A model generated the notes under the pieces. That model was not told the DNA's origin, made no database searches, and saw only the letters and a list, made by a program, of their open reading frames with translations. This document shows positions 18,601-34,199 of a stretch of 64,000 bases of DNA, piece by piece. The translations under genes were made by a program, and so were the position numbers. The DNA comes from Phycisphaerae bacterium (GTDB taxonomy: Bacteria; Planctomycetota; Phycisphaerae; Phycisphaerales; UBA5793), in the NCBI GenBank assembly GCA_039794345.1, contig JBDIVQ010000001.1:31072-95071 (forward strand), in the 5' to 3' direction. Positions within the stretch are counted from its first letter, which is position 1; each line of letters begins with the position of its first letter.

Positions 18601-21600
18601 CACCAACAACTCGGGCAACGTCGAGATCGGCGACGTCATCGTCTCCGGCGCGCCCAACGGCCGCGTCACCTTCGACGGCAGCGGGCGCACGGACGTCTAT
18701 CTCGTCCGCGCCTTCGGCGGCATCGACGTCATCGAGAATCGCACGACCGGCGACATCGTCGCCATTGATACGGACGGCGTGGACCAGGTCCGGCTCAGCG
18801 GAAACCTGGGCCGCACCTTCACCTCCACCAACGTCGGGCCGAAACTGCTGCTCGGCCCCGCGTACGGCGTGGTGGTCGGCCTCGAGTCCGAACTCGGCGA
18901 TGCGCTCCAGTACGACTCGACGCGCCTGGGCAGCGGCGGCGATCCGTACCTCGCGGGCGCGCCGTTCAACCAGTGGCTCAACGGGCTGGCGGTCCGCGCT
19001 TCCGGCGGCTTCGGGAGCGTCGGACTGATTCGCGTGGACGGTACGATCGTTGACGTCTACTCCGAGATCAACATCGGCCGGATCATGGCCAACGCGGACA
19101 ACAGCACCCCCTTCGGCGACTTCCACGGCGTCGAAGGCACGGTCTACACCCCCGGCTTCCTCAGCCGCATCGACCTCGGCGACGGGCTGGTGGACTCGCT
19201 CTCCGGCCCGTTCATCGACGGACTGATCGCGGTGGGCGAGACGCTCAGCCGCGTCGAGATTCGCGGCGAGGGGCACGACATTCTCGGCACGATTCTCGCC
19301 CGCGGCGTGACGACGGGGCTGGGAATCTCCCGCGTGAACGCCACGCAGGGCGCGGAGATCATCGGGGCCCACATCTCGACGAACCACCTCGACAGCTTCT
19401 TCCTCAATCCGAACCCGGATTCGGGCGACACCGGCTCCAGCCCGATCTCGGACATCACCCGCATCATGGTGAACGGCGGGAGCATCATCAACAGCACCAT
19501 CGCCGGGTTCGACGTCAACCAGATCAACATCAAGAACGGCCTGTGGGATTCGAACCGCCTGCGCGTGGACAGCAATCTCAACATCGTCCGGGCCGACGAG
19601 TTCGTCTTCCGTTACGCGACGGAGGGGGGCGAGAACCTCATCACGGTGGCCCGCAACTTCAACCGGCTCGAAACGCAGGGACGGCGCGGCGACATCACCG
19701 ATCTGACGGTGGACGTCATCGGCGACATGACCAACCTCCGCGCCAACTCGCTCGTGCGCATCAGCATCGACGTGGACCAGATGCTGCGCACGGTCGATGC
19801 GCGCGACCGCATGGTTTCTTCGCTCTTCCGCGCCGGCACGGTCACCAACTTCAACGCGATGAACGATATCACGCGCGTGACCTTCACGGCGGCGGGGCCG
19901 GTCAACACCTTCCGCTCACGCAACAGTTCCATCACGCGCCTCGACTTTACGATCGACGGACCCGACGGGCGGCTCAACACGCTCGACGCCCGCACCTCGA
20001 TCACGGGCGACATCCGCGTCTCGGGCGAGATCAAGAAGATCCAGACGCGCGACGGCGACATCATCGGCTCCATCGAGACGTTCTCGGGCGACGGCATCAT
20101 CCGGCGCCTGCAATCCGGCCGCGATCTCATCCTTGACATCGACGCCGACAACGACGTGGACCAGATCACCGTCGGCCGCAACTTCAGCGGGCTCGACGAC
20201 GAGTCGCTCAAGTTCCGCGGCGACCTCCGCAACCTGGACGTGCGGAACGGCACGTTTGACGGGCGCATCATCGTCGAAGGGTCGATCACGGGCAACTTCA
20301 CGCTGGGCGCCTTCGCTGCGGGCAGCGAGATCGTCTCGCGGGGCAGCATCACCGGCATCGACATCGACAGCGACGTCGACGGGCGGATCATCAGTTACAC
20401 GGACGGCATCCGGCGCCTCGACATCGACGGCACCTTCACCGGCAGCATCGCCGCCCGCAACGGAACGATCGACAACCTCACGATCGCCGGCGATGTCGCC
20501 GGCACGGTCCATGCCGACGAAGGCATTCGCACGATGACCATCCGCGCGGCGGCGGGGCTCGGCGGCGGCAGCGGCAACCTGACCGGCGCCATCACCACCG
20601 ACGTGAACATCGACCGGCTCGACATCGCCGGCGACGTGAACGGCGGACGCATCATGGCGCTCATCGACCTGCGCAGCGTCCTCGTGCGCGGCAACGTCAC
20701 CAACGCCATCATCGGCGCCGGGGAGCACGTGACGCGCCTGGACGTTGACGGCAACGTCGACGCCTCCTTCATCATCGGCGGCCTCGAGTCGCTCGGCGAC
20801 GACAACGCGCTGGGCGGCCAGGCGACCAATGCCGACACCTTCTCGAGCGGACAGGTGGACGCGGTCAACATCCGCGGCGGAATCAACAACGTCGTCATCG
20901 CCGCGGGCGTTCGCTCCGGCTCGGACGGCTACGCCACGCCGGACGCGACGACCGATCTCGCCCCCGGCCTGAGCAACGTGAACAACGTGCGGGTGGACGG
21001 TGCGGCTTCCGGGACGAACCGCATCATCGCCGACACGACACTCGGGTCGATCTTCGTGGACGGGACGCAGCGGACCATCGGCGCCCCCGGCGCCAACATG
21101 GTGCTCGTCGAACTCGATCCCGCCCCGCTCAACAACGGCGGGACGACGTTCACCGAGGCCGGAGCCGTCGTCTTCACCGACAGCGACGGCGATGAGATCA
21201 CCCTCTCGATGCGCGGCCCCGGCGAGGGCATGTACCTGCTCTCGGGCGGCGGCAGCGGCAACCTTACGGGCCTGGTCTTCAACGGCACCGCCTCCAACAC
21301 GAACGTGGATATCAAGGTCACCAGCGCGACCGGCAACGGCCGCGTCGATCTCGACAACGTCCACATTCAGTTCGCCGATGACACCGACCTGGGCAATCTG
21401 ACGGTCGAAGGCAACATCGACGGCTCCGACGCGATCACCATCGACGGCGCCGTGAACACGATCACGCTCCGCACGGTGAACACGAGCGGAACGATCGCCG
21501 TGGGCGGCGAAGCCCGCCGCGTCGTCGTTGACGGCGTGACGGCCGGATCCTTCGTCGTCACCCGGTTCACCACCCTCGACGTGCTTTCCGGAGGTTTCGG

Positions 21601-24268
21601 CGGCTCGATCTTCAGCGAAGTGGTCGGAACGGTCAACGTCCGCAACGGCGTGCTCAGCGGCGTCATCTGGGGACGCGACTCCATCGGCACGATCAACAAC
21701 AACTCGACCGGCGCCGTGATGGACCGTGCGTCCATCTCGACGCGCGGTTCAATTCAGGCGATCAATGCCGCGACCGTCCAGAATGTCACCCTCATCTCCG
21801 CGGGCGACCTCATCCAGAATGTCAACATCTCCGGCGATCTGGTCGAATCGGAGATTCACGCGGGACTGTCGCTCGGTTCCGACGGCCGCTACGGCGGGAC
21901 GGGAGCCGCGGCGGACCTCCTCACGGCCGGCACGATCGAAAGCGTGCGCATTCAGGGCTCGTTCGTCCGCAGCGCCATCACGGCGGGGGTCACGCGCGGC
22001 AAGGACCAGTTCTACGGGACAGCGGATGACCTGGGCTCGCAGGGCTTCGGCATGCTCCGACGCGTGGAGATCACGGGCTCGGTCATCGGCTCGAACTTCA
22101 ACAGCCAGAGTTACGGCTTCAGCGGCAGCGCCCTGGTCGAATCCGTCCGCGTCGGCGGGCAGGACTTCACCCAGCAGGGCAACGTCCGCCGCACGGCCGT
22201 GAACGCCACGCCGCTGCCGCTCATCGTCGAGCGTCTGCGAACGCGGCTCGAGGCGGAGACGTTCTACATCGACATCTTCTTCAACGAGGAAGTCGATGTC
22301 TCCACGATCCTGCTCGATCCGAACAACCCGCAGGCGGAGTCGGCGATCTCCTTCGAGAACCCGATCGATCCGAACGGCGTGATCCCCACGCCCAACGATT
22401 CGTACGACATCCTTTATGACCGCGTCGAACGGCGCGCGACGGTTCGGTTCACCCGCGCCTTCTCGCGCGAGAACCCGGGCATCTACACCCTGGTGATCGA
22501 CGGCCAGGCGATCCGCTCGGTGACGAACATCGGCCTTGATGCGAACCGCGATGGCGTGGTCGGCGACGACTACCAGCGCAACTTCATCATCGGCGACGCG
22601 GGCGACCGCACCGAGGCGGGAACCTGGGATCCCGACAACGATCCGAACACCAACAACACCGTGGACTTCGCGGGGGCGACCCGGCTCGACCTGCTCATGG
22701 ACGACCTCGTGAGCGGCACGGGCACGAAGAACCACCACGTCAGCTTCATCGGGCAGATCGGCGACCATCCGGACACCGAGTCGTTCTACTTCCCGCAGAA
22801 GTTTGACATGGACGTCTTCGTCATCTCTCTGTCTGCGGGCGACGTCTTCCAGGCTTCGCTCACGTCGTTCCTTTCCGGCTCGCCTTTCGTGGGGTCGCTC
22901 ACGCTTCGCGACGACGCGGGCCAGATCGTCGTCAACGAGGCGACGCTGGCGGCGGGCTTCGTCGAGACCAACGGCGGCGTCTACTACCTCACCATCGGCG
23001 GCACGGCGATCACCGGCACGGCCCCTCCGGGCACTGCCGACATCATCGACATCTCCAACAACACGGGGATGTTCACTCTGCCGATTCCCGTTCTGCCCAT
23101 CAATCCCAACGATGTCGCCAACGACATCGGCAACTACGAACTCAATCTGCTCATCTTCAACGACGGCAACACCGGGTTCAGCATTGCCGATGAGACCGAA
23201 CTCCTCGACGGGCAGCCGCTCGTCTTCGAGGGCTTCCTCGGCTTTGACAACAACGGCATCGTCTCCCAGCCGCTCTCCGACGCCGATGTCTTCGACATCA
23301 GCCGCGTCCGCCTCGCGGACAACACGCTGCTGACGCAACTTGAAGAGGGCATGACGGTCACGGTCACCCTTCGTCTCTCGCAGGTGGGCGGCAACCTGGG
23401 CAGCCGGTACGAAGTCGGACTCTTCCAGACGACGGAGACGATCGGCATCTCTGATGGTCTGCTCATGGGCGCCCCGGGGCCGGACGACACGCCCGGTGCG
23501 GGCGGAAACGCCTCCGACCAGACCTTCACCTTCCAGATTCCCGAGGCCGGAACCTACGCCGTCATGGTCCAGGGCAGCCTGATGTCCAACTACGAGTTGA
23601 TCATCACGGTTGACACGGGCACGCAGGGCGACCGCCTCAGCACCCCCTACGAGCAGAACGTCCTCATCGAACTCAACGGCGGGTTCGCCCACTGGTTCGG
23701 CATCGAGGGCTCAACGCTCGATGAGTTCAACGTCGAGATTCTCGGTTTCGGCGGCTTCGAGGCCCAGATCATCTCCACCATCATTGACGAGGTGACGCAG
23801 GACTTCGAGGATGCCGGCGTCACCGTCAACGTGAGCACGAACCCGGCCGACTTCGTCGGCGAGGACTTCACGACGGTGTTCCTCACGTCGTCGCTGGCGG
23901 CCCCGGGGCTGCTCGGCATCGCGCAGACGCTCGACCCGCAGAACCAGAGCAAGAACGATGAGGCCATCGTCTTCGTACAGGGCTTCGCCGGCTTCTTCGC
24001 CCCGGGACAGGTCACGGATCTCGCCCTCGCCCTCGCCCACACCATCAGCCACGAAGTCGGCCACACGCTCGGCCTGCGGCACGTCCGCTCGCCCGGCCTC
24101 GGCCCCTTCGCGATGATGGACGGCTTCGCGGATCCGTATTACAACTACGCCTGGCTCGGCGACCTCAACGATCCCTACGGTTCCGCCTACCGCCTTGGCG
24201 ACGGGTGGTTCTTCGGGATCGAGAACGAACGCCACCTGCTCAACCTCATCTTCGACACCGAGGCCTGA
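15653..24268 (+). CDS. Giant (2871 aa) planctomycete extracellular protein with C-terminal metzincin-type Zn motif
   Basis: Basic N-terminus plus LEPRKLL; GxD-x(2-4)-T-x-DD acidic repeats; long Ile/Val/Gly/Asn beta-rich core; DANRDG loop; PPC-like segments; HEVGHTLGLRH near the C-terminus. Confidence 0.85.
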   Translation: MKQRKTRRPFARPTRRASSAAAPVFQPLEPRKLLTTLYANPDLDLGQTSIFTGWVAMPAWYAGQTLDAGSVEDRSVRLVIRLIDSNPFSTASVTILDLAGHPLFPWIGQIDEGGGLTTDITVSTATGPQEGPNDGFWGSDDDLEADVFGLDSGYNPGWRVATDTNGEFVPGVWIPDGLFHPVRQLDWLEDEERWDIDNFPEEFTHVIPATGYWHPGADGLYETEDDVRVPLIFGVPGAGTDDRLLGTADDAWVNLVAPDAFEAPDTEDFEPHLVDRAVSGAAADDGIADFNNGIGRIILRNTSITTRLVFYLVDDFEDLTEITAPFSEPEGDRIGVAMNSDGSVYQAPGMGSIIIGNPTNADWTVHQPLPFNVMAFLPPGFQTYDRSSEGIIFEDPSLNETMGRVFVDGAIFGVNRFPGALEGIHAGFFGGKLIVDGDLDGLVIVGHAGYIEVDGVPTDTRAGVTVGRVFGSFVTGGNNSTFVLVQGDFAPDSIVDKPFLRSDKVVLEYERDIHLGVEEDYEAAFAAGNQTYILDNEGETPIYLLNDTFGAAQYIGRETVYTVVAGVLGARPIDDEHQREAPQPGDYYDIYSIGVERGRTLRVQMPLITLVTIQDAEGNILASRGTDGTIGDIFFTPNHSGVVYIVIENTGNFVNRGYGMTVSNGAAATLGEVRSMASLTYRFIDGSAITTQVGSIGSIRVGQDRGPDSDGGAPFIGSVLIQSGENIWNITSGGFIGGTVNDQNQRIGAGMLITAQGDIAEILAGFGRDIAQGGGEGYHGGSFGAVAIRAAGDIGILRAKARGDLLNELERVYGDFGGILNEGGQDVFFTDIQAGGSIGVISAENRILEDPDPSRGVRIAVGSGEYVDLLEAGAMPVVNFDLEAGVGDAGVSGGQAIINTGLGGNVRFFRAPYIWGNGVDDNTLLVTSGQTLQLIDDSGAIFTVRVTGTGSIAAVRTHAVQSSVGVATARITAVLGNAGRLIITNNSGNVEIGDVIVSGAPNGRVTFDGSGRTDVYLVRAFGGIDVIENRTTGDIVAIDTDGVDQVRLSGNLGRTFTSTNVGPKLLLGPAYGVVVGLESELGDALQYDSTRLGSGGDPYLAGAPFNQWLNGLAVRASGGFGSVGLIRVDGTIVDVYSEINIGRIMANADNSTPFGDFHGVEGTVYTPGFLSRIDLGDGLVDSLSGPFIDGLIAVGETLSRVEIRGEGHDILGTILARGVTTGLGISRVNATQGAEIIGAHISTNHLDSFFLNPNPDSGDTGSSPISDITRIMVNGGSIINSTIAGFDVNQINIKNGLWDSNRLRVDSNLNIVRADEFVFRYATEGGENLITVARNFNRLETQGRRGDITDLTVDVIGDMTNLRANSLVRISIDVDQMLRTVDARDRMVSSLFRAGTVTNFNAMNDITRVTFTAAGPVNTFRSRNSSITRLDFTIDGPDGRLNTLDARTSITGDIRVSGEIKKIQTRDGDIIGSIETFSGDGIIRRLQSGRDLILDIDADNDVDQITVGRNFSGLDDESLKFRGDLRNLDVRNGTFDGRIIVEGSITGNFTLGAFAAGSEIVSRGSITGIDIDSDVDGRIISYTDGIRRLDIDGTFTGSIAARNGTIDNLTIAGDVAGTVHADEGIRTMTIRAAAGLGGGSGNLTGAITTDVNIDRLDIAGDVNGGRIMALIDLRSVLVRGNVTNAIIGAGEHVTRLDVDGNVDASFIIGGLESLGDDNALGGQATNADTFSSGQVDAVNIRGGINNVVIAAGVRSGSDGYATPDATTDLAPGLSNVNNVRVDGAASGTNRIIADTTLGSIFVDGTQRTIGAPGANMVLVELDPAPLNNGGTTFTEAGAVVFTDSDGDEITLSMRGPGEGMYLLSGGGSGNLTGLVFNGTASNTNVDIKVTSATGNGRVDLDNVHIQFADDTDLGNLTVEGNIDGSDAITIDGAVNTITLRTVNTSGTIAVGGEARRVVVDGVTAGSFVVTRFTTLDVLSGGFGGSIFSEVVGTVNVRNGVLSGVIWGRDSIGTINNNSTGAVMDRASISTRGSIQAINAATVQNVTLISAGDLIQNVNISGDLVESEIHAGLSLGSDGRYGGTGAAADLLTAGTIESVRIQGSFVRSAITAGVTRGKDQFYGTADDLGSQGFGMLRRVEITGSVIGSNFNSQSYGFSGSALVESVRVGGQDFTQQGNVRRTAVNATPLPLIVERLRTRLEAETFYIDIFFNEEVDVSTILLDPNNPQAESAISFENPIDPNGVIPTPNDSYDILYDRVERRATVRFTRAFSRENPGIYTLVIDGQAIRSVTNIGLDANRDGVVGDDYQRNFIIGDAGDRTEAGTWDPDNDPNTNNTVDFAGATRLDLLMDDLVSGTGTKNHHVSFIGQIGDHPDTESFYFPQKFDMDVFVISLSAGDVFQASLTSFLSGSPFVGSLTLRDDAGQIVVNEATLAAGFVETNGGVYYLTIGGTAITGTAPPGTADIIDISNNTGMFTLPIPVLPINPNDVANDIGNYELNLLIFNDGNTGFSIADETELLDGQPLVFEGFLGFDNNGIVSQPLSDADVFDISRVRLADNTLLTQLEEGMTVTVTLRLSQVGGNLGSRYEVGLFQTTETIGISDGLLMGAPGPDDTPGAGGNASDQTFTFQIPEAGTYAVMVQGSLMSNYELIITVDTGTQGDRLSTPYEQNVLIELNGGFAHWFGIEGSTLDEFNVEILGFGGFEAQIISTIIDEVTQDFEDAGVTVNVSTNPADFVGEDFTTVFLTSSLAAPGLLGIAQTLDPQNQSKNDEAIVFVQGFAGFFAPGQVTDLALALAHTISHEVGHTLGLRHVRSPGLGPFAMMDGFADPYYNYAWLGDLNDPYGSAYRLGDGWFFGIENERHLLNLIFDTEA

Positions 24269-24309
24269 GGCGCTCGGAGTCGGGAAGAGCGGCATTCGCG
24301 CATCCCCAG

Positions 24310-24345
24310 ACAGGCCGGCCCGGCAACGGGTCGGCCTGTTTCATT
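24310..24345 (+). terminator. Intrinsic terminator between convergent genes
   Basis: 13-bp stem ACAGGCCGGCCCG/CGGGTCGGCCTGT (one G-T pair), GCAA loop, followed by TTCATT. Confidence 0.7.
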
Positions 24346-24396
24346 CCGTTCTGACCCGACCGAAGGCCCGCCGCGCTGCGCTGCGCGCCGATCCGC

Positions 24397-24678
24397 TCAG
24401 GCCTCGAGTGAATCGGCGAATTGCGCGAACTCGAAGTCCTTTTCGGTGATCCCCCCCGCGTCATGGGTGCTCAGGGTCAGCGTCACGCGGTTCCACCGGA
24501 TGAGGATGTCAGGATGGTGCTGCACGCGCTCGGCCCGCTGCGCCACCTGGTTCACAAACGCCATCGCGCACGCGAAGTCCTTGAACTGGAAGGTGCGGCT
24601 GATGCCGTCTCCCATGACGGACCACTCCGGCGTCGTCTTGAGCCGCTCCTCGATTTCCGCGGGCGAGAGTCTGGCCAT
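24397..24678 (-). CDS. phhB: Pterin-4-alpha-carbinolamine dehydratase
   Basis: RTFQFKDF, HHPDI, LSTHDAGGITEKD motifs; 93 aa. Confidence 0.9.
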   Translation of the reverse strand: MARLSPAEIEERLKTTPEWSVMGDGISRTFQFKDFACAMAFVNQVAQRAERVQHHPDILIRWNRVTLTLSTHDAGGITEKDFEFAQFADSLEA

Positions 24679-24731
24679 GGGGGTGCTCCTATCGTCCGGG
24701 GGCCTTCATCATCTTGGATGCGAATCAGGTC

Positions 24732-25670
24732 ATGTCAAGCCGTGTCACGCGCCTGGCCCCCTCGCCGACCGGCGCTCTGCACCTGGGCAATCTGCGCACG
24801 TTTCTCGTCAACTGGGCGCTGGCTCGCCGCGGGGGCTGGCGGATCATCATGCGCATCGAGGATCTCGATGGGCCGCGCATCAAGCCCCGCGCCGCCGACG
24901 ATCTGATCGAAACCCTGCGGTGGATCGGTTTGGACTGGGACGGGCCGGTCCTCGTGCAGAGCGAAGACCTCGAGCCCAGCCGCGAGGCGATGCGCGCCCT
25001 CGCCTCGCGCGGGCTCGTCTACCCCTGCGAACTCTCGCGCACGGAGATTGAGGCGGCAGCCTCCGCGCCGCACGGCCACGAAGGCGAACTCCGCTTTCCG
25101 GCCTCGCTGCGGCCCCCGACGCGCCCCGAACGATTTCTTGACGATCGGACGAACTGGCGTTTCGTCGTTCCCGACCGTGTCGTGGAGTTCGAAGACAGAC
25201 TCGTCGGCCGCGTCGCGCGCCGGCCGGCCGAGGAGTGCGGCGACTTTGTCGTCTGGACGAAGCGCGGCCAGCCGGCGTATCAACTGGCGGTCGTCGTGGA
25301 CGACGCCCGTCAGGGGGTGACCGACGTCATCCGCGGCGATGACCTGATCGAGTCCGCGGCGCGGCAGATTCTCCTCATCGAGGCGCTGGGCCTGTCCCCG
25401 CAACCGCGCTACCTCCACCTGCCTCTCGTGGTCGGTCGCGACGGCCGGCGTCTCGCCAAGCGCCACGGCGATACGCGAGTGGCCCAGTACCGCGCGATCG
25501 GGACCGCACCCGAGCGCCTCATCGGGCTGATGGCATTCTGGTCGGGGGTGATTCCGGTCCGACGCTCTTTGTCCCTTTCTGAGTTCCGCGATGGCCTCGA
25601 GCCGGCTACCCTTCCCCGCGGGCCGATCACGTTCACCAGCGAGGATGACCAGTGGCTGAGAGAGAGATGA
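24732..25670 (+). CDS. gluQ: Glutamyl-Q tRNA(Asp) synthetase
   Basis: RLAPSPTGALHLGN (HIGH), RIEDLD, YQLAVVVDD, RGDDL, RLAKRH; short protein with no anticodon-binding domain. Confidence 0.88.
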   Translation: MSSRVTRLAPSPTGALHLGNLRTFLVNWALARRGGWRIIMRIEDLDGPRIKPRAADDLIETLRWIGLDWDGPVLVQSEDLEPSREAMRALASRGLVYPCELSRTEIEAAASAPHGHEGELRFPASLRPPTRPERFLDDRTNWRFVVPDRVVEFEDRLVGRVARRPAEECGDFVVWTKRGQPAYQLAVVVDDARQGVTDVIRGDDLIESAARQILLIEALGLSPQPRYLHLPLVVGRDGRRLAKRHGDTRVAQYRAIGTAPERLIGLMAFWSGVIPVRRSLSLSEFRDGLEPATLPRGPITFTSEDDQWLRER

Positions 25671-26185
25671 GATCGCGCGGGGTGCTCCTGGGTCTGGTCA
25701 TTGCGGCGGCGATGATGCTGGCCGGCTGCGACAAGGACACTTCCGCCACCTTCCCCGTCAAGATCGCCGACGAGTGGTTCACCCTCGAAACCGCGATCTC
25801 GCCGACCGATCAGGCGCGCGGCCTGGGGGGTCGCGAGTCGATCGCCGACGACGGAGGGATGATCTTCGTTTTCGACCGCGACGAAGAGCGCAATTTCTGG
25901 ATGCTCGACTGCCTCGTTGACATCGACATCCTCTATCTCGACTGGCAGGGGTTCATCGTCTCGGCCTACACGATGAAGGCCCAACCTCTCCGCCAACCGG
26001 GGGAGTCGGAGGCTGCGTACCACCAGCGGCTGCGGACCGATTCCTATCCGAGCCGGGGCCGCTGCCGCTACGTCATCGAGTTGCGGGCGGGCCGCATTGC
26101 CGAACTCGGCCTGCGCAAGGGTCAGAAGATTGAACTCGATCTCGAGCGCCTCAAGGCGCTCGCGAAGAGTGCCGATGATCGCTGA
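25667..26185 (+). CDS. DUF192 family lipoprotein
   Basis: Lipobox LAGC; QARGLGGR, GMIFVF, FWM, YVIEL; ATGA-coupled to gluQ. Confidence 0.8.
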   Translation: MRSRGVLLGLVIAAAMMLAGCDKDTSATFPVKIADEWFTLETAISPTDQARGLGGRESIADDGGMIFVFDRDEERNFWMLDCLVDIDILYLDWQGFIVSAYTMKAQPLRQPGESEAAYHQRLRTDSYPSRGRCRYVIELRAGRIAELGLRKGQKIELDLERLKALAKSADDR

Positions 26186-26236
26186 GGGCGTGGCCCACTT
26201 TCCGGACCCCGGCTGCGCCAGCCGTCCGGTCCGATC

Positions 26237-27526
26237 ATGGCGATCCACCACGTCCATCTTGTGGGTTTCGACGCAGATGCGGAATTGCTCGCGCGCTGGT
26301 GCGAGGCTCTTCCCGCGTGCTGGCCGGGCGAGTCGCGCCTGGCCGTTGAGCCGCTGAGCGTGGAGCAGACCGTCGCCGCCCTCGAAGACCATCGCATCGA
26401 CGCGTGTCTCTACTTCGTCTCGTCGGCGACCTTGTCGCCCGCCGCCTACCAGATGCTCGACGCCCTCGATGAGCAGCGGGTGCCCACGATCATCCTGACG
26501 CACGACCGGCGGTTCCTGAACGCCCACGTCTCGCCGGAGCAGGCCCTCGTCTGCGACCTCTCCGAGCCGATCGACCGCGTCGCCCTCCGCCTCGAGACGC
26601 TGCTCCAGCGGCAGCGGACCGTGGAGCGCTGCGTGGAGGAACTGCGCGTGGCGCGGCGATGCCAGACCGGCCTGCAGAGCGAAGTCTCGCGCATTCACGA
26701 CGAGATGCAACTCGCCTCGATGATCCAGCGCGAGTTCCTGCCGCGCGCTCTTCCCGCGCTCGACGACGTGCGCTTCGGCGTCTTCTACCGCCCTGCCGGC
26801 TACGTGAGCGGCGACATGTATGATGTCCGTCGCCTCGATGAGCACACCATCGGCTTCTTCCTTGCCGACGCGGTTGGTCACGGCGTGCCCGCGGCGCTGC
26901 TCACCATGGTCATCTCGCGCTGCCTCACGCTCAAGGTCATCAATGATGTAGACTACCGCATCGTCCCGCCCGGCGAAGTGCTCGCGCGCCTTAATGAGGA
27001 GATGCTCCGCCTTCAGAGCGCCGGTGGGCGCTTCGCCACTGCCGTCTACGGCGTCATCGACACCCGCACTCACAAGGTCACCATCGCCGGCGCGGGCCAT
27101 CCGCCCCCGCGTCTCATTCAGGACGACGGCGAGTCCCTCGGCCTCGAGACCGACGGTGGCCTGCTGGGGGTCTTTCCCGACGCCGCCTTCAGCGAAATCT
27201 CCTTTACCCTGCGCGCCGGCGAACGCCTGGTCCTCTTCACCGACGGCTTCGAGACCGCCTTCCCCGATCAGTCCTCCGCCAGGCGCCAGCGACGCCTGCC
27301 CACCGACCGCTATCTCGACTGTCTCGCGCGCATCTGCGGCTCGCACGCGACCGTCGAGGAGAGCATCGCCCAACTCGGCGTGCTCGTGGATGACCAGTCC
27401 GGCTCGCTCCACCAGATCGACGACCTCACGGCGATCATCATTCAGTCCGACGCCCCCGCCGGGTGCGTGAGCGTCGCCTCGCCGGTCGGCGCCCGCACCG
27501 GTCGCAGCGCCGACCTCGCGGCGTAA
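26237..27526 (+). CDS. PP2C/SpoIIE (RsbU-like) phosphatase with degenerate receiver-like N-terminus
   Basis: Coiled coil, A..IQ..FLP, VSGDMYD, ADAVGHGVPAALL, AGHPPP, FTDG and DDLT motifs. Confidence 0.85.
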   Translation: MAIHHVHLVGFDADAELLARWCEALPACWPGESRLAVEPLSVEQTVAALEDHRIDACLYFVSSATLSPAAYQMLDALDEQRVPTIILTHDRRFLNAHVSPEQALVCDLSEPIDRVALRLETLLQRQRTVERCVEELRVARRCQTGLQSEVSRIHDEMQLASMIQREFLPRALPALDDVRFGVFYRPAGYVSGDMYDVRRLDEHTIGFFLADAVGHGVPAALLTMVISRCLTLKVINDVDYRIVPPGEVLARLNEEMLRLQSAGGRFATAVYGVIDTRTHKVTIAGAGHPPPRLIQDDGESLGLETDGGLLGVFPDAAFSEISFTLRAGERLVLFTDGFETAFPDQSSARRQRRLPTDRYLDCLARICGSHATVEESIAQLGVLVDDQSGSLHQIDDLTAIIIQSDAPAGCVSVASPVGARTGRSADLAA

Positions 27527-27616
27527 GGGTGAGACGACCCACCCGCCTCGCTGGATGTGACCTCCGCTGCTCTCGACCGTCCAACTGCAACCGCAGTCAG
27601 CCTCCTCGCTTTTTCC

Positions 27617-27645
27617 TTGCAACCCGCCCCGCCGTCCTGTACACT
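27617..27645 (+). promoter_or_regulatory. sigma70 promoter of array gene 1
   Basis: TTGCAA-N17-TACACT in a GC-rich background, ~54 nt before ATG 27699 (RBS AAGGAG). Confidence 0.7.
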
Positions 27646-27698
27646 TGCGGCAGGGCGAAGACCATCGCGGGGACGAAGGCCATCGCGAAGGAGTGCAT

Positions 27699-27974
27699 AT
27701 GACCGGACCGACCGCACGAGGCACGATCGTCGCCGACAGGCCCGTCGAACTCGCCGCCCCGTGGTGGACGCGGCGCAACGTCCTGATCACCTGCGTCTCG
27801 ATCAGCGCCCCCGGCGGCGTCGTTTACGTCGGCGGACCGAGTGTGAGCGCCGACGACGGCTACCCCCTCCGCGCCCGAGAGCGCCTTCAACTCGACCTCG
27901 CCCCCGACGCCGCACTCTTCGCCGTCGTGTCAACCGGCACCGCCGATGTGCGCGTTCTGGAGACGAGCGAGTGA
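27699..27974 (+). CDS. Small all-beta protein, array paralog 1 (phage structural-like)
   Basis: 91 aa; RR.V.I...VYVGG..V....GYPL...E.L....VRVLE signature shared with paralogs 3 and 5; RBS AAGGAG. Confidence 0.75.
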   Translation: MTGPTARGTIVADRPVELAAPWWTRRNVLITCVSISAPGGVVYVGGPSVSADDGYPLRARERLQLDLAPDAALFAVVSTGTADVRVLETSE

Positions 27975-28094
27975 TGGATCAAGCGGCTCCGCCGCCGCGC
28001 GTGGCGCAGAGGAATTGCGCAGGCGGAACCAGCGGGCGGCGGCCATGTTTCAGCCGGAGGCCCAGAGAATTCGGGTAGTTCCCGCATATTTCCC

Positions 28095-28123
28095 TTGCAC
28101 ACCTCCCGACCGTCGGGTACACT
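28095..28123 (+). promoter_or_regulatory. sigma70 promoter of array gene 2 (near copy of 27617-27645)
   Basis: TTGCAC-N17-TACACT; flanks TTTCC(C) upstream and T-G downstream match the first promoter. Confidence 0.7.
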
Positions 28124-28157
28124 TGAGTACTCTGGCGGGTTTCCGAGGGAGAATCGC

Positions 28158-28475
28158 ATGAGCAGGCCCGATGTGCCCGTCGTCATCACCGTGCCCCGCA
28201 CCACCGGAAGCTCGACCTCCATCAGCGGTGGCGCCACTGAGGTCATCCTCCGCGCCCGCTCCTCCAACGTGCAGGCGATCAGCCTCAACGTGACGACCTC
28301 GGGCGAGTCTGATCCATCGACTTCCGGCGGCAACGCCATGATCCTGTTTCCGGGTGAATCGCTCCAACTGCCCGCCGACCCGGCGTCGGGCACGCTCCTG
28401 GTCAAGTACGTCACACTGAACGACGACAGCGACCTGGCGCAGCCGGTGCTGGAGATCGTCGAGATCGTACCCTGA
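28158..28475 (+). CDS. Small all-beta protein, array paralog 2 (divergent)
   Basis: 105 aa; EVILRARSSN..., ILFPGESLQL and a terminal LEIVEI strand; RBS GAGGGAG. Confidence 0.65.
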   Translation: MSRPDVPVVITVPRTTGSSTSISGGATEVILRARSSNVQAISLNVTTSGESDPSTSGGNAMILFPGESLQLPADPASGTLLVKYVTLNDDSDLAQPVLEIVEIVP

Positions 28476-28505
28476 CGCGTACCATCCATCCGGAGGAGGG
28501 CGACG

Positions 28506-28868
28506 ATGCCCCATTCCACCGCCCTGCTCATCGAACCCGAAACCGCGCCCGCGAGCGAGATCGACGAGCGGCCCTATCTCATCGCCGATCGCGCCAACGT
28601 CGCGGTCAAAGCCGCGGCCCTCATCGTGAGCACCACGGCCGTCGAACTCACCGCCGGCCTGGCGCGGCGGCGCAAGGTCTACATCAAGAACATCGCCACG
28701 ACCAACGTTCTTTACGTCGGCGGCTCGGGCGTGACGACATCCAACGGCTACCCGATTGGCGTCAAGGAAGAACTCTGGATCGACGCAAGCCCCGGCGCGC
28801 CAGTCTATGGCGTCATGGCGTCACCGGCCCTGAGCACCAACGTCCGCGTACTGGAGGCCGGAGTATGA
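28506..28868 (+). CDS. Small all-beta protein, array paralog 3
   Basis: 120 aa; VSTTAVEL, RRRKVYIKN, YVGGSGV, GYPIG, VYGV, VRVLE; RBS GGAGGAGG. Confidence 0.8.
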   Translation: MPHSTALLIEPETAPASEIDERPYLIADRANVAVKAAALIVSTTAVELTAGLARRRKVYIKNIATTNVLYVGGSGVTTSNGYPIGVKEELWIDASPGAPVYGVMASPALSTNVRVLEAGV

Positions 28869-29227
28869 CGCTCCACAGCGATTCAGTCTCGCTCGATGAA
28901 GACGGCCGCGTGCGGATCAACCGCGCGTGCCCGGCCGTAAAGCACGCGCAGTTCTCCGTCGGTGACACGCAAGTGAAACTCGAAACTGGCTTGGCTCATC
29001 GCCGGACGCTCATCATCAAGCCTCTTCGCAGCGGCACGGACCCGAACCGGCCACGCCGGTGGATTGCGATCGGCCCCGACGGTTTCGACGCCGCCGATGG
29101 CGTGCCGGTGTGGGAAGAGTTTGAATTGATCCTGAGCGTGAGTCCGGAGGATGCGATCTACGCCCTTCAAGGGGACAGTGAGACAGGCGACATCGATGTT
29201 CGAATCCTCGAAGTGGGAGAAGGATGA
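28865..29227 (+). CDS. Small all-beta protein, array paralog 4
   Basis: 120 aa; SVGDTQVKL, HRRTLIIK, IAIG, GVPV, IYAL, VRILE; ATGA overlap with paralog 3. Confidence 0.78.
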   Translation: MTLHSDSVSLDEDGRVRINRACPAVKHAQFSVGDTQVKLETGLAHRRTLIIKPLRSGTDPNRPRRWIAIGPDGFDAADGVPVWEEFELILSVSPEDAIYALQGDSETGDIDVRILEVGEG

Positions 29228-29230
29228 ATC

Positions 29231-29575
29231 ATGGGCAAGCCGTCCAAGGTATGGCCGATCGATCCGACCGGACGCGTGTGGATTACGGAGGCTGCGGAGA
29301 ACCAGATCGCCACGGCGACGATCAGTGTGGGAACGACAGCCGTCACACTGACGACTAATACGAGCGGTTTGAAGCGCCGCAAACTGCTCGTCCGCAACAC
29401 GAAGGGTCCGGAAGTCGTTGCTTACGTCGGCGACGGCAACGTATCCGTCAGTTCCGGTTATCCCCTCTTCAGAAACGATGAAATTGAACTCGATGTGGAT
29501 GCGAGTGCGGTAGTGGCGGCGATCAGGGCATCGGGCGGTGCGGATGGGGAAGTGCGCATCGTGGAGGTCGAATAA
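29231..29575 (+). CDS. Small all-beta protein, array paralog 5
   Basis: 114 aa; SVGTTAVTL, KRRKLLVRN, AYVGDGNV, GYPL, VRIVE. Confidence 0.8.
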   Translation: MGKPSKVWPIDPTGRVWITEAAENQIATATISVGTTAVTLTTNTSGLKRRKLLVRNTKGPEVVAYVGDGNVSVSSGYPLFRNDEIELDVDASAVVAAIRASGGADGEVRIVEVE

Positions 29576-29576
29576 C

Positions 29577-29990
29577 ATGGGACGCAGACTGCTCACCAAG
29601 GCGCCACGCGTCGACGAGACCGGGGCGATACTGGTCAATTACGCCGCCGGCCGAGTTGGCGGGGCGCAGGTAGGGCGTGTCGATCTTGATCAGGCGCAGG
29701 TGTGTGTCCCGTTTTCAGGCGGATCGCCTCTGGCCGACAGAAAGTACGTTGTGATCACAAACGTCGCTGAGGCCATTAATCTGGGAATTGATGGCATGAC
29801 GTTTGCCGATTCGTACGTACTTCCGGGAGCCGGCCGGGGAACTGGATCGCTTCCTCCTGATCTTGCCAGATACTCAAACCGCAAGCAGTTCTTGCGCGGT
29901 CAGTATCTCTCAATCGCCTGCTTCAGCGCCGTCGGGATTTGCGCTCGGTCATTAAATGCTGAGATCGCGGGTTCGTTGGAGTTGTCATGA
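29577..29990 (+). CDS. Small protein, array paralog 6 (divergent)
   Basis: 137 aa; N-terminal VDETG arm, LADRKYVVITN, INLG, DSYVL; starts 1 nt after the paralog 5 stop. Confidence 0.62.
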   Translation: MGRRLLTKAPRVDETGAILVNYAAGRVGGAQVGRVDLDQAQVCVPFSGGSPLADRKYVVITNVAEAINLGIDGMTFADSYVLPGAGRGTGSLPPDLARYSNRKQFLRGQYLSIACFSAVGICARSLNAEIAGSLELS

Positions 29991-31042
29991 TGTTGCGGCA
30001 ACGACTATTGACTGCCTCCGCTTTTGCGCTGCTTTGGAATCCTCTGGCCGCGGGCCAGGGCATCCTGTGGGACAGTGGCGAGTGGGATCTGCGCGCGGCC
30101 ACGTCTTCCGAGCGGAACACCGAAGTAGATGACTCATGGGTTGTCGATGATGCCATCTTCGAAACAGGTGTTATGATAACAGGATATCGGTGGTTCTCGA
30201 GACTGCGCGACAATTGGGGAGGGGCGAGGCCGCTCGGCGCGGATTTCATCGTGCTCACCGACGAGTTTGAGAAGATCGTGGAATTGCGAGACCTGCCCTA
30301 TGACATTGAGTTTGTTGGCGAGTTTCGTGGGAGCCCTTACTTCAGGATGGAAGTTCACGGGCTGGATGTGGCCCTGCCGCCCGGCCGCTATTATTTGGGC
30401 GGTCGACCCGTGGGGGAGGGACTCTACCAGGCATTCACCGGAATGAACGCAACAATCCTCGGCCAGACGGTAGCGTACTTTCGATCAGAGTTCTTTGGAA
30501 TTCCTGAGTGGACGGCGATAGACAACCTCGTCGGTGCGCGCTTGGATATCGCCTTCACCGTCTTCGGCCACGTCGTGCGCGAGGAAGTCGAGGCGGAGTC
30601 CTTCACCGTTCCTCTTGGCCGACTGCTCGGCGGTGAGGTCTCCGACCTGCATGAGAGTGATGATCGTTACATTACGATCCGCAACCGGGCGCTGATGGCG
30701 CTGACCCTGCCGATGATCCGCATGGAGGTGCAAGGCGTAACCGCCGTCGAGACGGCTTCGCGCATTACCGTCACGGTCGAGACGGCGGCGAGCAGTCTGC
30801 CCAAACAACCCCTCCAGCGCCTCGCCCTCTTCGATTACGTCGCGGAGAGGTGGATCACCATCGACGAGCGCGCAGCCACCATCATCGACACGTCGATCGC
30901 GATCATCATCGAAGACGACCCGACGCGCTTCATCGCCCCCGGCACAGGCCAACTCAGAATGCGCCTCGACTGGTTCGACCCCAACGCGACCACCCCCTGG
31001 GGCGTCCGCATCGATCACGCAACGTGGGTCGTGGAGCGGTAG
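29987..31042 (+). CDS. Secreted two-domain hypothetical protein
   Basis: Sec-type signal (RQRLLTASAFALLWNPLAAG); N-domain WDSG...VVDD...Y.LGG; C-domain GRLLGGEVSDLHESDD...LFDY...W...IDHATW; ATGA-coupled to paralog 6. Confidence 0.75.
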   Translation: MMLRQRLLTASAFALLWNPLAAGQGILWDSGEWDLRAATSSERNTEVDDSWVVDDAIFETGVMITGYRWFSRLRDNWGGARPLGADFIVLTDEFEKIVELRDLPYDIEFVGEFRGSPYFRMEVHGLDVALPPGRYYLGGRPVGEGLYQAFTGMNATILGQTVAYFRSEFFGIPEWTAIDNLVGARLDIAFTVFGHVVREEVEAESFTVPLGRLLGGEVSDLHESDDRYITIRNRALMALTLPMIRMEVQGVTAVETASRITVTVETAASSLPKQPLQRLALFDYVAERWITIDERAATIIDTSIAIIIEDDPTRFIAPGTGQLRMRLDWFDPNATTPWGVRIDHATWVVER

Positions 31043-31098
31043 GGGCGCGACAAGTGCCGATGGAGTGGCGAGGATAGGAAAGTAAGAAGCGAAGATCG

Positions 31099-31135
31099 CC
31101 CCCATCCCGGCCTTCCCCCGCAGAGCCGGGGGAGG
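31099..31135. repeat. REP-like palindromic element
   Basis: CCCCCATCCCGGCC followed by hairpin TCCCCCG-CAGAGC-CGGGGGA between convergent genes; a related degenerate copy lies in the opposite orientation at ~33349-33376. Confidence 0.45.
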
Positions 31136-31194
31136 AGAGTGCACTCAACGCGGCGCGGCGCGATTCGCGGGAATTGCGACGGCGCGCCGCGGAA

Positions 31195-32007
31195 CTACCG
31201 CCCGACTTCAAATCGCTGGAAGCCGGTGATGCTCACGCCCTTGGGCAGCACGTCCTTGACGCTCTGCTTGCCCTCCGGATCCTTCACGTACTTCTGATCG
31301 AGAAGGGTGATCTCCTGGAGGAACTTGCGGATCTTGCCTTCGACCATCTTCTCGGCGATTTCGGGCGGCTTGCCGGACTCCATCGCTTCGGCCTTGGCCA
31401 TCTCGCGCTGCTTGCTGACGACGTCGGCCGGAATGTCCTTGTCGGAGACGCCCTGGGGGATGGGGACGTGGCTGACGATGTGCATGCAGATGCCCTTGGC
31501 CGTCTCCTCATCCACCGCGCCTGAGAACGTGATGACCGCCGCCTTCTGATTGTCGAAGTGGAGGTACGCGCCGACGCAGGGTGCTTCGAGTTTCAGGCCG
31601 CGCTTGTAGACCGTGTTCTCCCCCGTGGTGATGCGGATGTTGTCCACCAGGGACGTGATGCGGTCGTCGGCGCTGACGTCGCCGGCGGGGCCGCTGAGGG
31701 CGATCGACGCGATTTCGTTGGCGGCCTTCTCGACCATCTCGTTGCGCGCGGTGAAATCCGTCTCGACGTTGATCTCGACGATGGCGACAGCCTTGCGGTC
31801 GGGCGAGGTGGCGACGGCGAGGCGTCCCTGGGCCATGGCGCGGCCGGCGCGCTCATCCATCTTGCCCTTGAGTTTGGCGCGGAGCCACTCGACGGCCTTT
31901 TCCATGTCGCCGTCGTTGACGGTGAGCGCCTCCTTGCAATCCATCATCCCGAGGCCGGTTCGCTGGCGCAGGGCCATCACGTCTTTGGCGCTGATCGTTG
32001 CTGACAT
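31195..32007 (-). CDS. tsf: Elongation factor Ts
   Basis: LRQRTGLGMMDCKEAL, EINVETDFTARN, KIRKF...LLDQ; downstream of rpsB. Confidence 0.97.
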   Translation of the reverse strand: MSATISAKDVMALRQRTGLGMMDCKEALTVNDGDMEKAVEWLRAKLKGKMDERAGRAMAQGRLAVATSPDRKAVAIVEINVETDFTARNEMVEKAANEIASIALSGPAGDVSADDRITSLVDNIRITTGENTVYKRGLKLEAPCVGAYLHFDNQKAAVITFSGAVDEETAKGICMHIVSHVPIPQGVSDKDIPADVVSKQREMAKAEAMESGKPPEIAEKMVEGKIRKFLQEITLLDQKYVKDPEGKQSVKDVLPKGVSITGFQRFEVGR

Positions 32008-32151
32008 TCCATCATCCCTTCTGCTGACTGCGGTTCGGACGGGCCGTCGATCGAGCGAGTGGCGGCCGGGCGTCCTGGCGGTTTCTGGAAGGCTCGTCCC
32101 CCGCGGTCGGGAGCGAGCGAAGAGGCCCAGGCGCGGTGACTGCCGGCGGGC

Positions 32152-33036
32152 TCAGTTCGACCCCTGGTTCGGGCCGACGGGTGCGGCGGCCTCGGCGCCC
32201 GGCTCCGCCTGCTGATCGGGCCCGGCGGCGACGGGTTCATCCTTGAGGAACATGGCGCGTCGGCTGCGGCGCGGCGCGGCGGCAGCGGCGCCCTCGGCCG
32301 GAGCGCTGCGGCCTTCCTCGTCCGCCTGCTGCGCGACGACGCGCTGGTTCTTGCCTTCGACGACGGCGGCGCACAACTCGCGGATGATCACGTCGATGGA
32401 GCGCATGGAGTCGTCGTTGCCGGGAATGGGGATGTCGGCGAGGTCGGGGTCGCCGTCGGTGTCGATGAGGCAGATCGTCGGGATGCCGAGTTTCTTCGCC
32501 TCCATGATGGCGTTCATCTCGCGCTTGACGTCGATCACGACGATGGCGCCGGGCAGTTTGCCCATGTTGCGGATGCCTTCGAGGTTGCGCAGGATCTTCT
32601 TGCGCTCGCGGCGCAACTGGCTCTCCATCTTCTTGGAGTAGTTGGCGATGTCGCCGCTCTCCTCGATGCGCTCGAGTTCTTCGAGGCGCTTGAGGCGCGA
32701 GCGGATGGTGCGGAAGTTCGTGAGCGTTCCGCCGAGCCAGCGCTCGATGACCCAGTGCATCTTGACGTCGCCGACGCGCTCGCGGATGACGTCGCGGGCC
32801 TGGCGCTTCGTGCCGACAAAGCAGACGTCCTTGCCCGAGGCGACGGTCTTGGCGATGAACTTCTTGGCCAGAAGCAGCCCCTTGACCGTCTCCTTGATGT
32901 CGATGATGTGGATGTTGTTGCGCTTGCCGTAGATGTACGGCTGCATGCGGGGGTTCCAGTTGGAACTGCGCTGTCCGAAGTGGATGCCCGCTTCGATGAG
33001 GTCGCTCACGAGCGACTTAGACGTGGTCAGAGCCAT
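32152..33036 (-). CDS. rpsB: 30S ribosomal protein S2
   Basis: LIEAGIHFG, WNPRM, FVGTK, RWLGGTLTNF, IPGNDD; start ATG 33036 after GAAAGGAG. Confidence 0.97.
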   Translation of the reverse strand: MALTTSKSLVSDLIEAGIHFGQRSSNWNPRMQPYIYGKRNNIHIIDIKETVKGLLLAKKFIAKTVASGKDVCFVGTKRQARDVIRERVGDVKMHWVIERWLGGTLTNFRTIRSRLKRLEELERIEESGDIANYSKKMESQLRRERKKILRNLEGIRNMGKLPGAIVVIDVKREMNAIMEAKKLGIPTICLIDTDGDPDLADIPIPGNDDSMRSIDVIIRELCAAVVEGKNQRVVAQQADEEGRSAPAEGAAAAAPRRSRRAMFLKDEPVAAGPDQQAEPGAEAAAPVGPNQGSN

Positions 33037-33304
33037 GATTCCGATGCTCCTTTCGAGCACAGCGACACCGGCGGAAGACCAGTCAGCGCCGCGGCCCGAT
33101 GCCTCCGGGCGTCGCAGCGAATCCCCCGCGCCAAGGGCGCTTACGGGTGGACGAATGCGGTCTGATTCTGCAAGAGAACGAAGACCCGTACGATTCCGGG
33201 TTCCGGCGCCGACGCCGCGGCCGCCAGGCCGAACACGTCCCACACCGCGCGGAAACCCCCTGATCGCTGACCTCGATCAAGACTGAACTCTAGCCCTCCT
33301 CGAA

Positions 33305-33391
33305 GAGGGGTTCAATCGCCGCGGGCGGGGGGCTGCGGTCCGGGTTCTCTCTCTCCCGCTGTGGCCGGGGCAGGGGATCGTCAACCCCCTC
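33305..33391. repeat. Inverted repeat enclosing a degenerate REP-like core
   Basis: GAGGGGGTT (33305-13) and AACCCCCTC (33383-91) flank CTCTCCCGC..GGCCGGGGCAGGGG. Confidence 0.35.
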
Positions 33392-33566
33392 CGGGTAGAG
33401 GAGATTTCATGAAAGGTCCGCGCCGCGCCGGCCATGGCAGCGCCGTAACCTACCGGCGCACCGCGAGACAGCACCCGCGCTGAAGGCCCGCGGTCTGCTG
33501 CAACCTCCGATCGCTTCGGCGGTGGATCGTGCCGCCGGTTCCGCGCCGCGGCACATAGAATGCCTC

Positions 33567-34199
33567 ATGGAGCGAGGCGGTCCTTATCCCGATTCGATGG
33601 TGCGGCTTATCGACGAGTTCGCCCGGCTGCCCGGCATCGGTCGGCGAAGCGCCGAGCGGCTGGCGTTTCATATTCTCAAGGCCGATCGCGAGACGGCGAT
33701 GGGCCTGGCGCGGGCGATCGGGGACGTCAAGGCGCACGTCCGCCACTGTTCGATCTGCTACAACCTCGCTGATCGCGACCCCTGCCCGATCTGCACTGAC
33801 CCGAGGCGGGATCACTCGACGATTCTCGTCGTGGAGCAGCCCAAGGATCTCATCAGCCTGGAGCAGACGGGGATGCATCGCGGAGGGTATCACGTGCTCA
33901 TGGGGCGTCTTGCCCCGCTTGAGGGCATCGAACCTGAAGATCTCACCGTTCACGTCCTGCTGCGGCGCGTCGATGATCCGCAGGCGAACGCGGGCGCTGC
34001 AGCGGTGAAGGAGGTCATTTTCGGGTTGAGTCCCAACCTGGAGGGCGACGGCACGGTGCTCTACCTCGCCGAGCAGTTGAAGTCGCGCGGCGTGAAGATG
34101 AGCCGGCTGGCGCGCGGCTTGCCGAGCGGCTCGCAGATCGAGTACGCCAGCAAGGCGGTTCTCGCCGACGCGATCGTGGGGCGCCAGGGACTGGATTGA
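33567..34199 (+). CDS. recR: Recombination mediator RecR
   Basis: LPGIGRRSAERLA, C4 zinc finger CSIC...CPIC, TOPRIM VVE...EGDGT, RLARGLP. Confidence 0.95.
   Translation: MERGGPYPDSMVRLIDEFARLPGIGRRSAERLAFHILKADRETAMGLARAIGDVKAHVRHCSICYNLADRDPCPICTDPRRDHSTILVVEQPKDLISLEQTGMHRGGYHVLMGRLAPLEGIEPEDLTVHVLLRRVDDPQANAGAAAVKEVIFGLSPNLEGDGTVLYLAEQLKSRGVKMSRLARGLPSGSQIEYASKAVLADAIVGRQGLD

Follow-up and report, generated by a model that had tools for sequence, protein, structure and literature searches.

Single-jelly-roll proteins build many virus shells and vertices, and the exchange of modules between cells and viruses is central to virus origins. In the PRD1-type vertex of Tectiviridae, the penton P31 and the spike P5 are paralogous small jelly rolls, the products of adjacent genes, and share a single vertex complex with a receptor-binding protein. 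Here, we describe a run of six genes for small jelly-roll proteins, p1 to p6, and an adjoining gene for a predicted exported partner, L, on a chromosomal contig of a Phycisphaerae bacterium (assembly GCA_039794345.1, contig JBDIVQ010000001.1). The window is the whole 64-kb stretch of this contig that was analyzed, and coordinates are window positions unless a contig label is given. The one solved structure reached from these proteins by sequence is the penton base GP14 of vibriophage NO16, in which residues 2-89 form a capsid-embedded jelly roll and the C-terminal domain adds a further jelly roll; this one stands out from the vertex as a pentamer and takes up the N-terminal stalks of the trimeric spike GP13 (PMC13552765). 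The domain has so far been solved only on that virion (2026), and here it occurs in an old, selected, multi-copy cellular operon. A literature search returned no paper joining single jelly-roll proteins, Planctomycetes and paralogs, and none on a cellular operon of this kind. We conclude with high confidence that the operon core is a set of four to five paralogs (p2-p6), each fixed in position and built on a single-jelly-roll domain of ~90 residues, with a coupled L, and that it is not part of a prophage.

All seven genes lie on the plus strand. The first, p1 (27699-27974, 91 amino acids (aa)), is a monocistronic, arm-less extra gene of p3-type kinship with its own promoter-like element, outside the p2-p6-L operon. 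It is followed by p2 (28158-28475, 105 aa), a divergent jelly-roll paralog lacking the DxxGR arm described below; p3 (28506-28868, 120 aa), a paralog with a ~30-aa N-terminal arm; the likewise armed p4 (28865-29227, 120 aa) and p5 (29231-29575, 114 aa); and p6 (29577-29990, 137 aa), a divergent paralog with its own conserved C-terminal motif, YSNRKQFLRGQY. L (29987-31042, 351 aa) closes the operon. The genes are tightly coupled: the start codons of p4 and L overlap the stop codons of p3 and p6, respectively (ATGA in both cases), and p4/p5 and p5/p6 are separated by 3 bp and 1 bp. A Shine-Dalgarno-like GGAG precedes each of p1-p6, and the G+C fraction is 0.57-0.59 within the array versus 0.67-0.70 outside. 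An earlier note on this DNA, made from the sequence alone, had described six consecutive same-strand genes of 91-137 aa at 27699-29990. Open reading frames (ORFs) occur at exactly these positions and the six genes are real; the unit, however, is p2-p6 plus a seventh gene, L, that the note had overlooked.

We compared the small proteins using profiles of the six window proteins (A1), of cassette proteins only (A2) and of a broad family of 57 sequences (A4). The sequence signature proposed for the array is real in the A1 alignment. BLASTP gave mutual matches among p1, p3, p4 and p5 (E 1e-5 to 1e-12) and no match of p2 or p6 to other array proteins. These two, already described as divergent paralogs, are joined to the family only by hhalign of their ortholog alignments to A4, for p2 with 92% probability (E 5.7e-7, 84 columns) and for p6 with 88% probability (E 3.2e-6, 70 columns), the latter over no more than the arm and the front half of the domain (alignment A6). 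In p3, p4, p5 and p6, the domain is preceded by an N-terminal arm of ~30 residues bearing a D-x-x-G-R-hydrophobic motif, and the D-x-x-G-x-hydrophobic unit of the arms is also repeated in the shafts of fibre-like phage relatives. Consistent with the reported absence of signal peptides, the first 25 residues of the small proteins lack a hydrophobic core by simple hydropathy, and no Tat or other export signal was seen. Known families offered little: a Pfam search of the seven proteins at E <= 1 yielded only a sub-threshold alpha-rhamnosidase-like match of p3, NCBIfam and PADLOC gave nothing useful (CcmP and ATP-synthase-epsilon noise), and PADLOC-DB 2.0 returned 0 families for all seven at E <= 0.1. 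In two independent natural fusion proteins, the mutually diverged P0019 and P0025, a p3-type domain is followed by a p4-type one, as in the operon.

The fold of the small proteins was assessed on an AlphaFold2 (AF2) model of p3 computed from a 21-row alignment. The model, with a predicted local distance difference test (pLDDT) score of 80, has a disordered stretch of ~30 residues at its start and a beta sandwich at residues 33-119 (domain pLDDT 82-94). Compared with BFVD, it gave 81 matches at E < 1e-3, including a 198-aa protein of Streptomyces phage WheeHeim; the best are uncharacterized Caudovirales proteins of ~85-90 aa (template modelling (TM) score TMt 0.83-0.89, root mean square deviation (rmsd) 1.6-2.1 A). 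The sandwich and these matches agree with the initial description of the products as small jelly rolls. At the sequence level, the PHROGs family phrog_30212, of unassigned function, matches p3 (E 1.1e-7) and p5 (E 1.5e-6) through the C-terminal half of its 202-position profile. The sole significant match in a PDB sequence search was NO16 GP14 (9t9r/9t9v), residues 92-177, found with A4 (E 7.7e-8), A2 (E 4.4e-7) and A1 (E 1.7e-7); a weak pirin/YhhW match had E 0.17. Motifs common to the GP14 distal domain and the array proteins are RRxVxI, xYVGG, G.P., E.L.LD and VRILE. Among the Foldseek PDB matches of the p3 model, 9t9r did not appear.

Searching 1.84 billion cluster representatives with the A1 profile retrieved 1246 proteins at E <= 1e-3, in which the domain is mostly C-terminal in proteins of 100-400 aa or stands alone in proteins of ~90 aa. 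The longer ones carry phrog_30212 at the C-terminus, and their N-terminal parts are weakly like tail-fibre, baseplate and tail-assembly families. As a separate observation, two proteins (P0028/P0030) contain multiple copies, namely 20 matched stretches in one 6182-aa protein and four tandem copies in one 482-aa protein; as judged from these repeats, the domain also serves as a bead-like unit inside single polypeptides. In tailed phages, homologs belong to the head module. The gene order in contig L027 is protease, SU10-type major capsid protein, two small genes and the homolog, while in L028 the homolog lies directly ahead of an SU10-adaptor-like or tail gene and in Gordonia phage Charming ahead of the head-to-tail adaptor. 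An IMG/VR scan with p3 yielded zero viral relatives, and tblastn against a phage collection gave short, weak matches only. Two ideas of the earlier note, that similar proteins are encoded in phage virion regions and that the array proteins are 'spike-base-like', are borne out because of the phrog_30212 match, the small Caudovirales proteins and the head-module position of homologs on the one hand and the match to the distal penton-base domain of GP14 on the other. On these matches, p1-p6 belong to the GP14-distal/phrog_30212 jelly-roll domain family.

The surroundings of the array are cellular, as the same note had stated. Pfam identifies Pterin_4a, tRNA-synt_1c (GluQ-like), DUF192 and SpoIIE upstream and EF-Ts, ribosomal S2 and RecR downstream; the contig has no tyrosine integrase, and neither Terminase_6N nor the HK97 capsid was matched across the assembly. 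In genomes G001 and G005, both of the same genus, the site is empty, with the SpoIIE-family gene and tsf ~100 bp apart and a hairpin between them. The insert in the window is therefore the ~3.6-kb array only. With virus-free flanks and an array-only insert, the viral genome context expected of virion components was not found here. Other genomes are occupied differently: at the same site, G006 has p1, a shortened p2, p4, p5, p6 and L, and G003 has p1 followed by unrelated genes including an IS3-type transposase (L040, G003:C15 2151-6217). The p1 orthologs at this site in G003 and G006 are 92% identical to the window p1. The suggested check for conserved synteny between SpoIIE/gluQ and tsf across Phycisphaerae came out otherwise: the site varies in content, and does so within a single sub-clade of one genus. 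A prophage or degraded prophage was rejected on the array-only insert, the housekeeping flanks, the lack of hallmark genes and the intact genes with a ratio of nonsynonymous to synonymous substitution rates (dN/dS) of 0.09-0.32.

The operon occurs at least four times in the genome, which the earlier note had missed. In the 4.06-Mb assembly (258 contigs), the A1 profile had 18 matches, and cassettes were found in the window and on contigs C75, C35 and C160, with fragments at the ends of C21 and C56. They are of two types. The C75 cassette comprises p2, p3, p4, p5, p6, L and a second L, and that of C35 starts at the contig edge with p4, p5, p6 and L. C160 carries a divergent, type-B cassette of pa, pb, pc and pd with a 316-aa L-like protein; type-B cassettes have four small genes and lack p2. 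Four is a minimum because contigs break at the repeats: ends fall inside cassette copies on C21 (end, 40531-40761), C35 (start, from 33) and C56 (start, 14-250). More than four copies are therefore likely, and some joins between them may be chimeric. Gene order is identical in all cassettes. Distant ones, with the same order and sizes (105, 119, 121, 114, 138 and 317 aa), appear in metagenome contigs L004, L029 and L030/L031. Mobile-element genes adjoin or enter individual copies: in L003, a DDE transposase interrupts L (10229-11377), and the degraded cassette of L029 (11289-12187) is flanked by a tyrosine integrase, a serine recombinase and an insertion sequence (IS) element.

Among relatives, 14-16 matches each were counted in two of the genus's six other genomes and none in the remaining four. 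No A1-type match was found in 34 further genomes of the family and order, and a 400-genome sample of the phylum gave one weak match. Identity of the SpoIIE-family protein is 92% and 83% among the three carriers versus 75-77% to non-carriers; the carriers are closest to each other, and the distribution therefore fits one sub-clade rather than a random patchwork. Taken together, the array is very probably a single member of a chromosomal operon family that is accessory and multi-copy and occurs in a few Phycisphaerales.

Copies within the genome share 60-93% protein identity, with dN/dS of 0.09-0.32 and dS of ~1 or saturated. By gene, dN/dS is 0.21 for p2 (against the C75 copy), 0.11 for p3, 0.12-0.23 for p4 and ~0.1 for p6. 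As judged from these ratios, the array is maintained by purifying selection, in line with two further proposals of the earlier note, that it was amplified, as the several diverged copies in its own genome attest, and that it is kept and not decaying neutrally. We then built a maximum-likelihood tree of 50 small proteins that included the distant L004 and L030 members. Proteins grouped by position, with clades for p4 (99/100), p6 (99/98), p3 (90/90), p2 (100/100) and p1 (100/99); the p5 proteins also grouped together, with the long p2 branch emerging from among them, and p1 was sister to p3 (92/84). Since the positional types are clades that include distant relatives, the paralogs diverged before the cassettes spread, and each type was kept. 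Read from the tree, such retention is what non-redundant components of a single machine would be expected to show. Of the small genes, p2 is disrupted in several relatives, by a frameshift in L001/L002 (a 1-bp insertion; L001:7560-7975), an in-frame TGA in L020 (4223-4760), truncation in L022/L023 and shortening in G006, and p3-p6 are intact. Looser selection on p2 may explain these lesions, or else errors in assembling the repeats.

The partner L follows p6 or pd in every cassette seen. It consists of a Sec-type leader, a beta-sandwich N-domain (residues 25-196) and a C-terminal half; AF2 modelled the N-domain confidently (pLDDT >90) and the C-half poorly. By simple hydropathy, all L proteins have a hydrophobic core at residues 7-20 followed by an AxA-like site, and their mature N-terminus opens with a conserved (I/V)LW(D/H/R)NG. 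The 19 L homologs have no Pfam domain, L matched nothing in Pfam or NCBIfam, and a PDB sequence search with the L profile gave noise only. All cassette lineages have the N-domain in common, and the C-terminal part is swapped between lineages: L004 has a PEP-CTERM tail, L030 and type B have a Cys-containing domain, and the window L differs from both. The PEP-CTERM assignment applies to the L004 ortholog only (TIGR02595, 22.8 bits, cut-off 16; PF07589, 21.5 bits, cut-off 20.7); no such motif was found in the window L with NCBIfam or Pfam.

Copies of L within the genome (29987-31042 versus C75:11111-13197 and C35:1149-2201) are 46-60% identical in the N-domain, with saturated dS, and 83-95% identical at the amino acid level in the C-half, with dS of 0.18-0.44; omega is 0.12-0.24 in both. 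The high identity and low dS of the C-half next to a saturated N-domain therefore point to its concerted evolution by gene conversion or recombination among cassette copies. Positive selection on the N-domain was considered and rejected (omega 0.12-0.23, dS saturated). Two L genes stand in tandem in C75, and the marine-type relative L030 has a second L-like gene (1918-2880, 320 aa) upstream of the cassette besides the downstream one; L is thus duplicable independently of the small genes.

The array has promoter-like sequence patterns of its own ahead of p1 (27616-27647, plus strand, CTTGCAA-N17-TACACT-TG) and ahead of p2 (28094-28125, plus strand), the latter being the candidate operon promoter. 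The pattern CTTGCA-N18-TACAYTTG occurs twice in the window versus 0 expected and three times in the whole 4.06-Mb genome, ahead of p1, p2 and the p2 fragment of C56, and the -35/-10 upstream of p2 is kept in relatives (alignment A3). A consensus promoter/terminator scan did not pick up these elements and reported zero terminators. Just 3' of L lies a repeat resembling repetitive extragenic palindromes (REP-like; 31093-31146; core CCTTCCCCCGCAGAGCCGGGGGAGG, with a hairpin of CCUUCCCCCG/CGGGGGAGG in the RNA fold). It is not specific to the array, with blastn copies of 37-62 bp on >20 contigs in both orientations. A GC-rich hairpin between L and the convergent tsf (31148-31191, RNA fold) is the likely terminator region; the fold of 31040-31195 has -73.8 kcal/mol (z -3.1), and an Rfam scan of 24000-34000 gave no match. 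Metagenome runs labelled as RNA contain contigs of relatives that cover p1 and, in one piece, p5-p6-L. Unrelated to the array, a 2871-aa ORF upstream (15653-24268) has an N-terminal LEPRKLL and a C-terminal zinc-protease-like motif, HEVGHTLGLRH.

In the working model, arms and jelly-roll edges would mediate co-assembly of the paralogs into a hetero-oligomer shaped as a ring, knob or short fibre, with one set position per type; this assembly would work with L, and the fast-diverging N-domain of L would give each cassette its own envelope specificity. We infer a hetero-oligomeric structural assembly because GP14 is an oligomeric platform, the arm unit is shared, the genes are coupled and the P0019 and P0025 fusions exist, and we hold this part tentatively, at a little under an even chance. 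A joint role of the small proteins with L at the envelope appears possible but doubtful. More speculative still, a Phycisphaerales lineage might have recruited the jelly roll of a viral vertex or knob for a cellular, virus-independent nanostructure, a hetero-oligomeric ring or short fibre that docks or presents L, with the cassette versions giving alternative surface specificities; in this full form, we consider the scenario rather unlikely. The capture from a virus and the particle or cage put forward in the earlier note are likewise conjectural. Several points weigh against the model. The pentamer was seen in NO16 GP14; for the array products, assembly is a prediction from their genes and relatives. 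Foldseek comparison of that model with PDB gave generic jelly rolls only (TM ~0.5; Ena subunits, cupins and some capsid cement proteins), and that of L was uninformative, its top match being a PBCV-1 capsid chain (TM 0.28/0.21). A complex of small proteins without an export signal and an L with one is hard to picture. The four small genes of type B and the broken p2 of several relatives leave no fixed count such as five, and the idea that five paralogs make one pentamer was set aside on the same grounds. Moreover, the copies lie in multi-copy regions of metagenome-assembled genomes (MAGs) in which assembly chimeras are possible, and the RNA-labelled evidence consists of assembled contigs of relatives that possibly include DNA.

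Other readings share parts of this evidence. As a special case of structural assembly, the paralogs could polymerize into a pilus-like extracellular or surface fibre resembling the Ena endospore appendages of Bacillus, as its major, minor and anchoring subunits and with L as its tip or anchor. The top PDB fold matches of p3 are indeed Ena1B, Ena3A, Ena1C and Ena2A (E ~4e-3, TM ~0.5), size (~115-137 aa), disordered arm, missing signal peptide and multi-paralog operon are alike, and one L ortholog, in L004, is a PEP-CTERM surface protein. The p3 scores, however, equal those of unrelated cupins, no DUF3992 match was found in Pfam at E <= 1, the arms in alignment A1 lack the conserved cysteines that cross-link Ena fibres, and the sequence-level relatives are viral, not Ena; the host is not a spore former and has no known route for such fibres across its diderm envelope. 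We therefore regard an Ena-type fibre as unlikely. About equally unlikely is that the small proteins are soluble, cytoplasmic, non-assembling beta-barrels, for example cupin-like binders or regulators, and that L is merely their neighbour. Cupins among the p3 fold matches, the missing export signal and the lack of a detectable relation between L and the small proteins fit such a role, but there is neither a cupin Pfam match nor a conserved metal-binding His/Glu pattern, the sequence homologs are structural virion proteins, p3-p4 fusions occur naturally, and L is coupled by stop/start overlap and present in every cassette across distant lineages.

The remaining two explanations look to viruses and mobile elements. 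An anti-phage decoy, in which host-made subunits would corrupt the assembly of capsid vertices or head decorations in infecting viruses with that domain, would account for the homology to virion proteins, the accessory, multi-copy and clade-restricted distribution, the siting of cassettes at variable spots, at times next to integrase, recombinase or IS genes, and a G+C content below that of the flanks. A decoy would not need a fixed set of four to five ancient paralogs and an exported protein, though; the paralog types are older than the cassette spread and under plain purifying selection, no PADLOC family matched, and the lack of close relatives in IMG/VR contigs leaves no known target virus. 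This makes a decoy function improbable, slightly more so than a fibre or a cupin-like role. Least probable, in our view, is a fragment or module of an unrecognized virus, satellite or mobile element kept as a selfish or recent arrival. Multi-copy cassettes of atypical G+C, IS elements beside or inside some copies and assembly contigs that break at cassettes would suit it. Against it, the insert relative to the empty site is the array only, none of the copies comes with a gene for replication, packaging, a capsid shell or integration, the copies are old (dS >= 1) and constrained, and the site is occupied in two species.

If the products of the operon assemble as proposed, they would represent either a cellular structure made from a virion vertex domain or a cellular source of that domain, and they would offer a first functional handle on phage proteins of the phrog_30212 type. 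In practical terms, all carriers are uncultured MAG lineages, and samples with the organism come from bioreactors, hot springs or wetlands.

Compared with the described systems, the array shares with Ena1A/B/C and Ena3A (DUF3992) small jelly-roll subunits, an N-terminal connector, the absence of a signal peptide and multi-paralog operons. It differs from them in that structural similarity reaches only TM ~0.5, no sequence or Pfam relation exists, the connector cysteines are absent and the host biology is another. Closer in fold are phrog_30212 and the Caudovirales proteins of ~85-100 aa, such as Charming gp25 and Bakery gp39, which superimpose on p3 with TMt 0.7-0.89 and rmsd 1.6-2.5 A; in contrast to the array, these phage genes are single, lie in head or head-tail modules and have neither the DxxGR arm nor an L partner. 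The PRD1 proteins resemble the array in being small paralogs encoded side by side, yet no sequence match was found, they are virion parts, and paralog number and exported partner differ. The closest likeness is to the distal domain of NO16 GP14, the same ~85-residue domain, which oligomerizes about an axis and offers a further protein a platform. There, it is encoded by a single gene of a double-jelly-roll-shell virus behind a second, capsid-embedded jelly roll, whereas in the array it is a lone domain with a short arm, present as four to six diverged paralogs on a bacterial chromosome with no other viral gene. Going by sequence, the array is not an Ena system, a cupin or a known defence system and is best described as a viral-type jelly-roll domain in a cellular multi-paralog operon.

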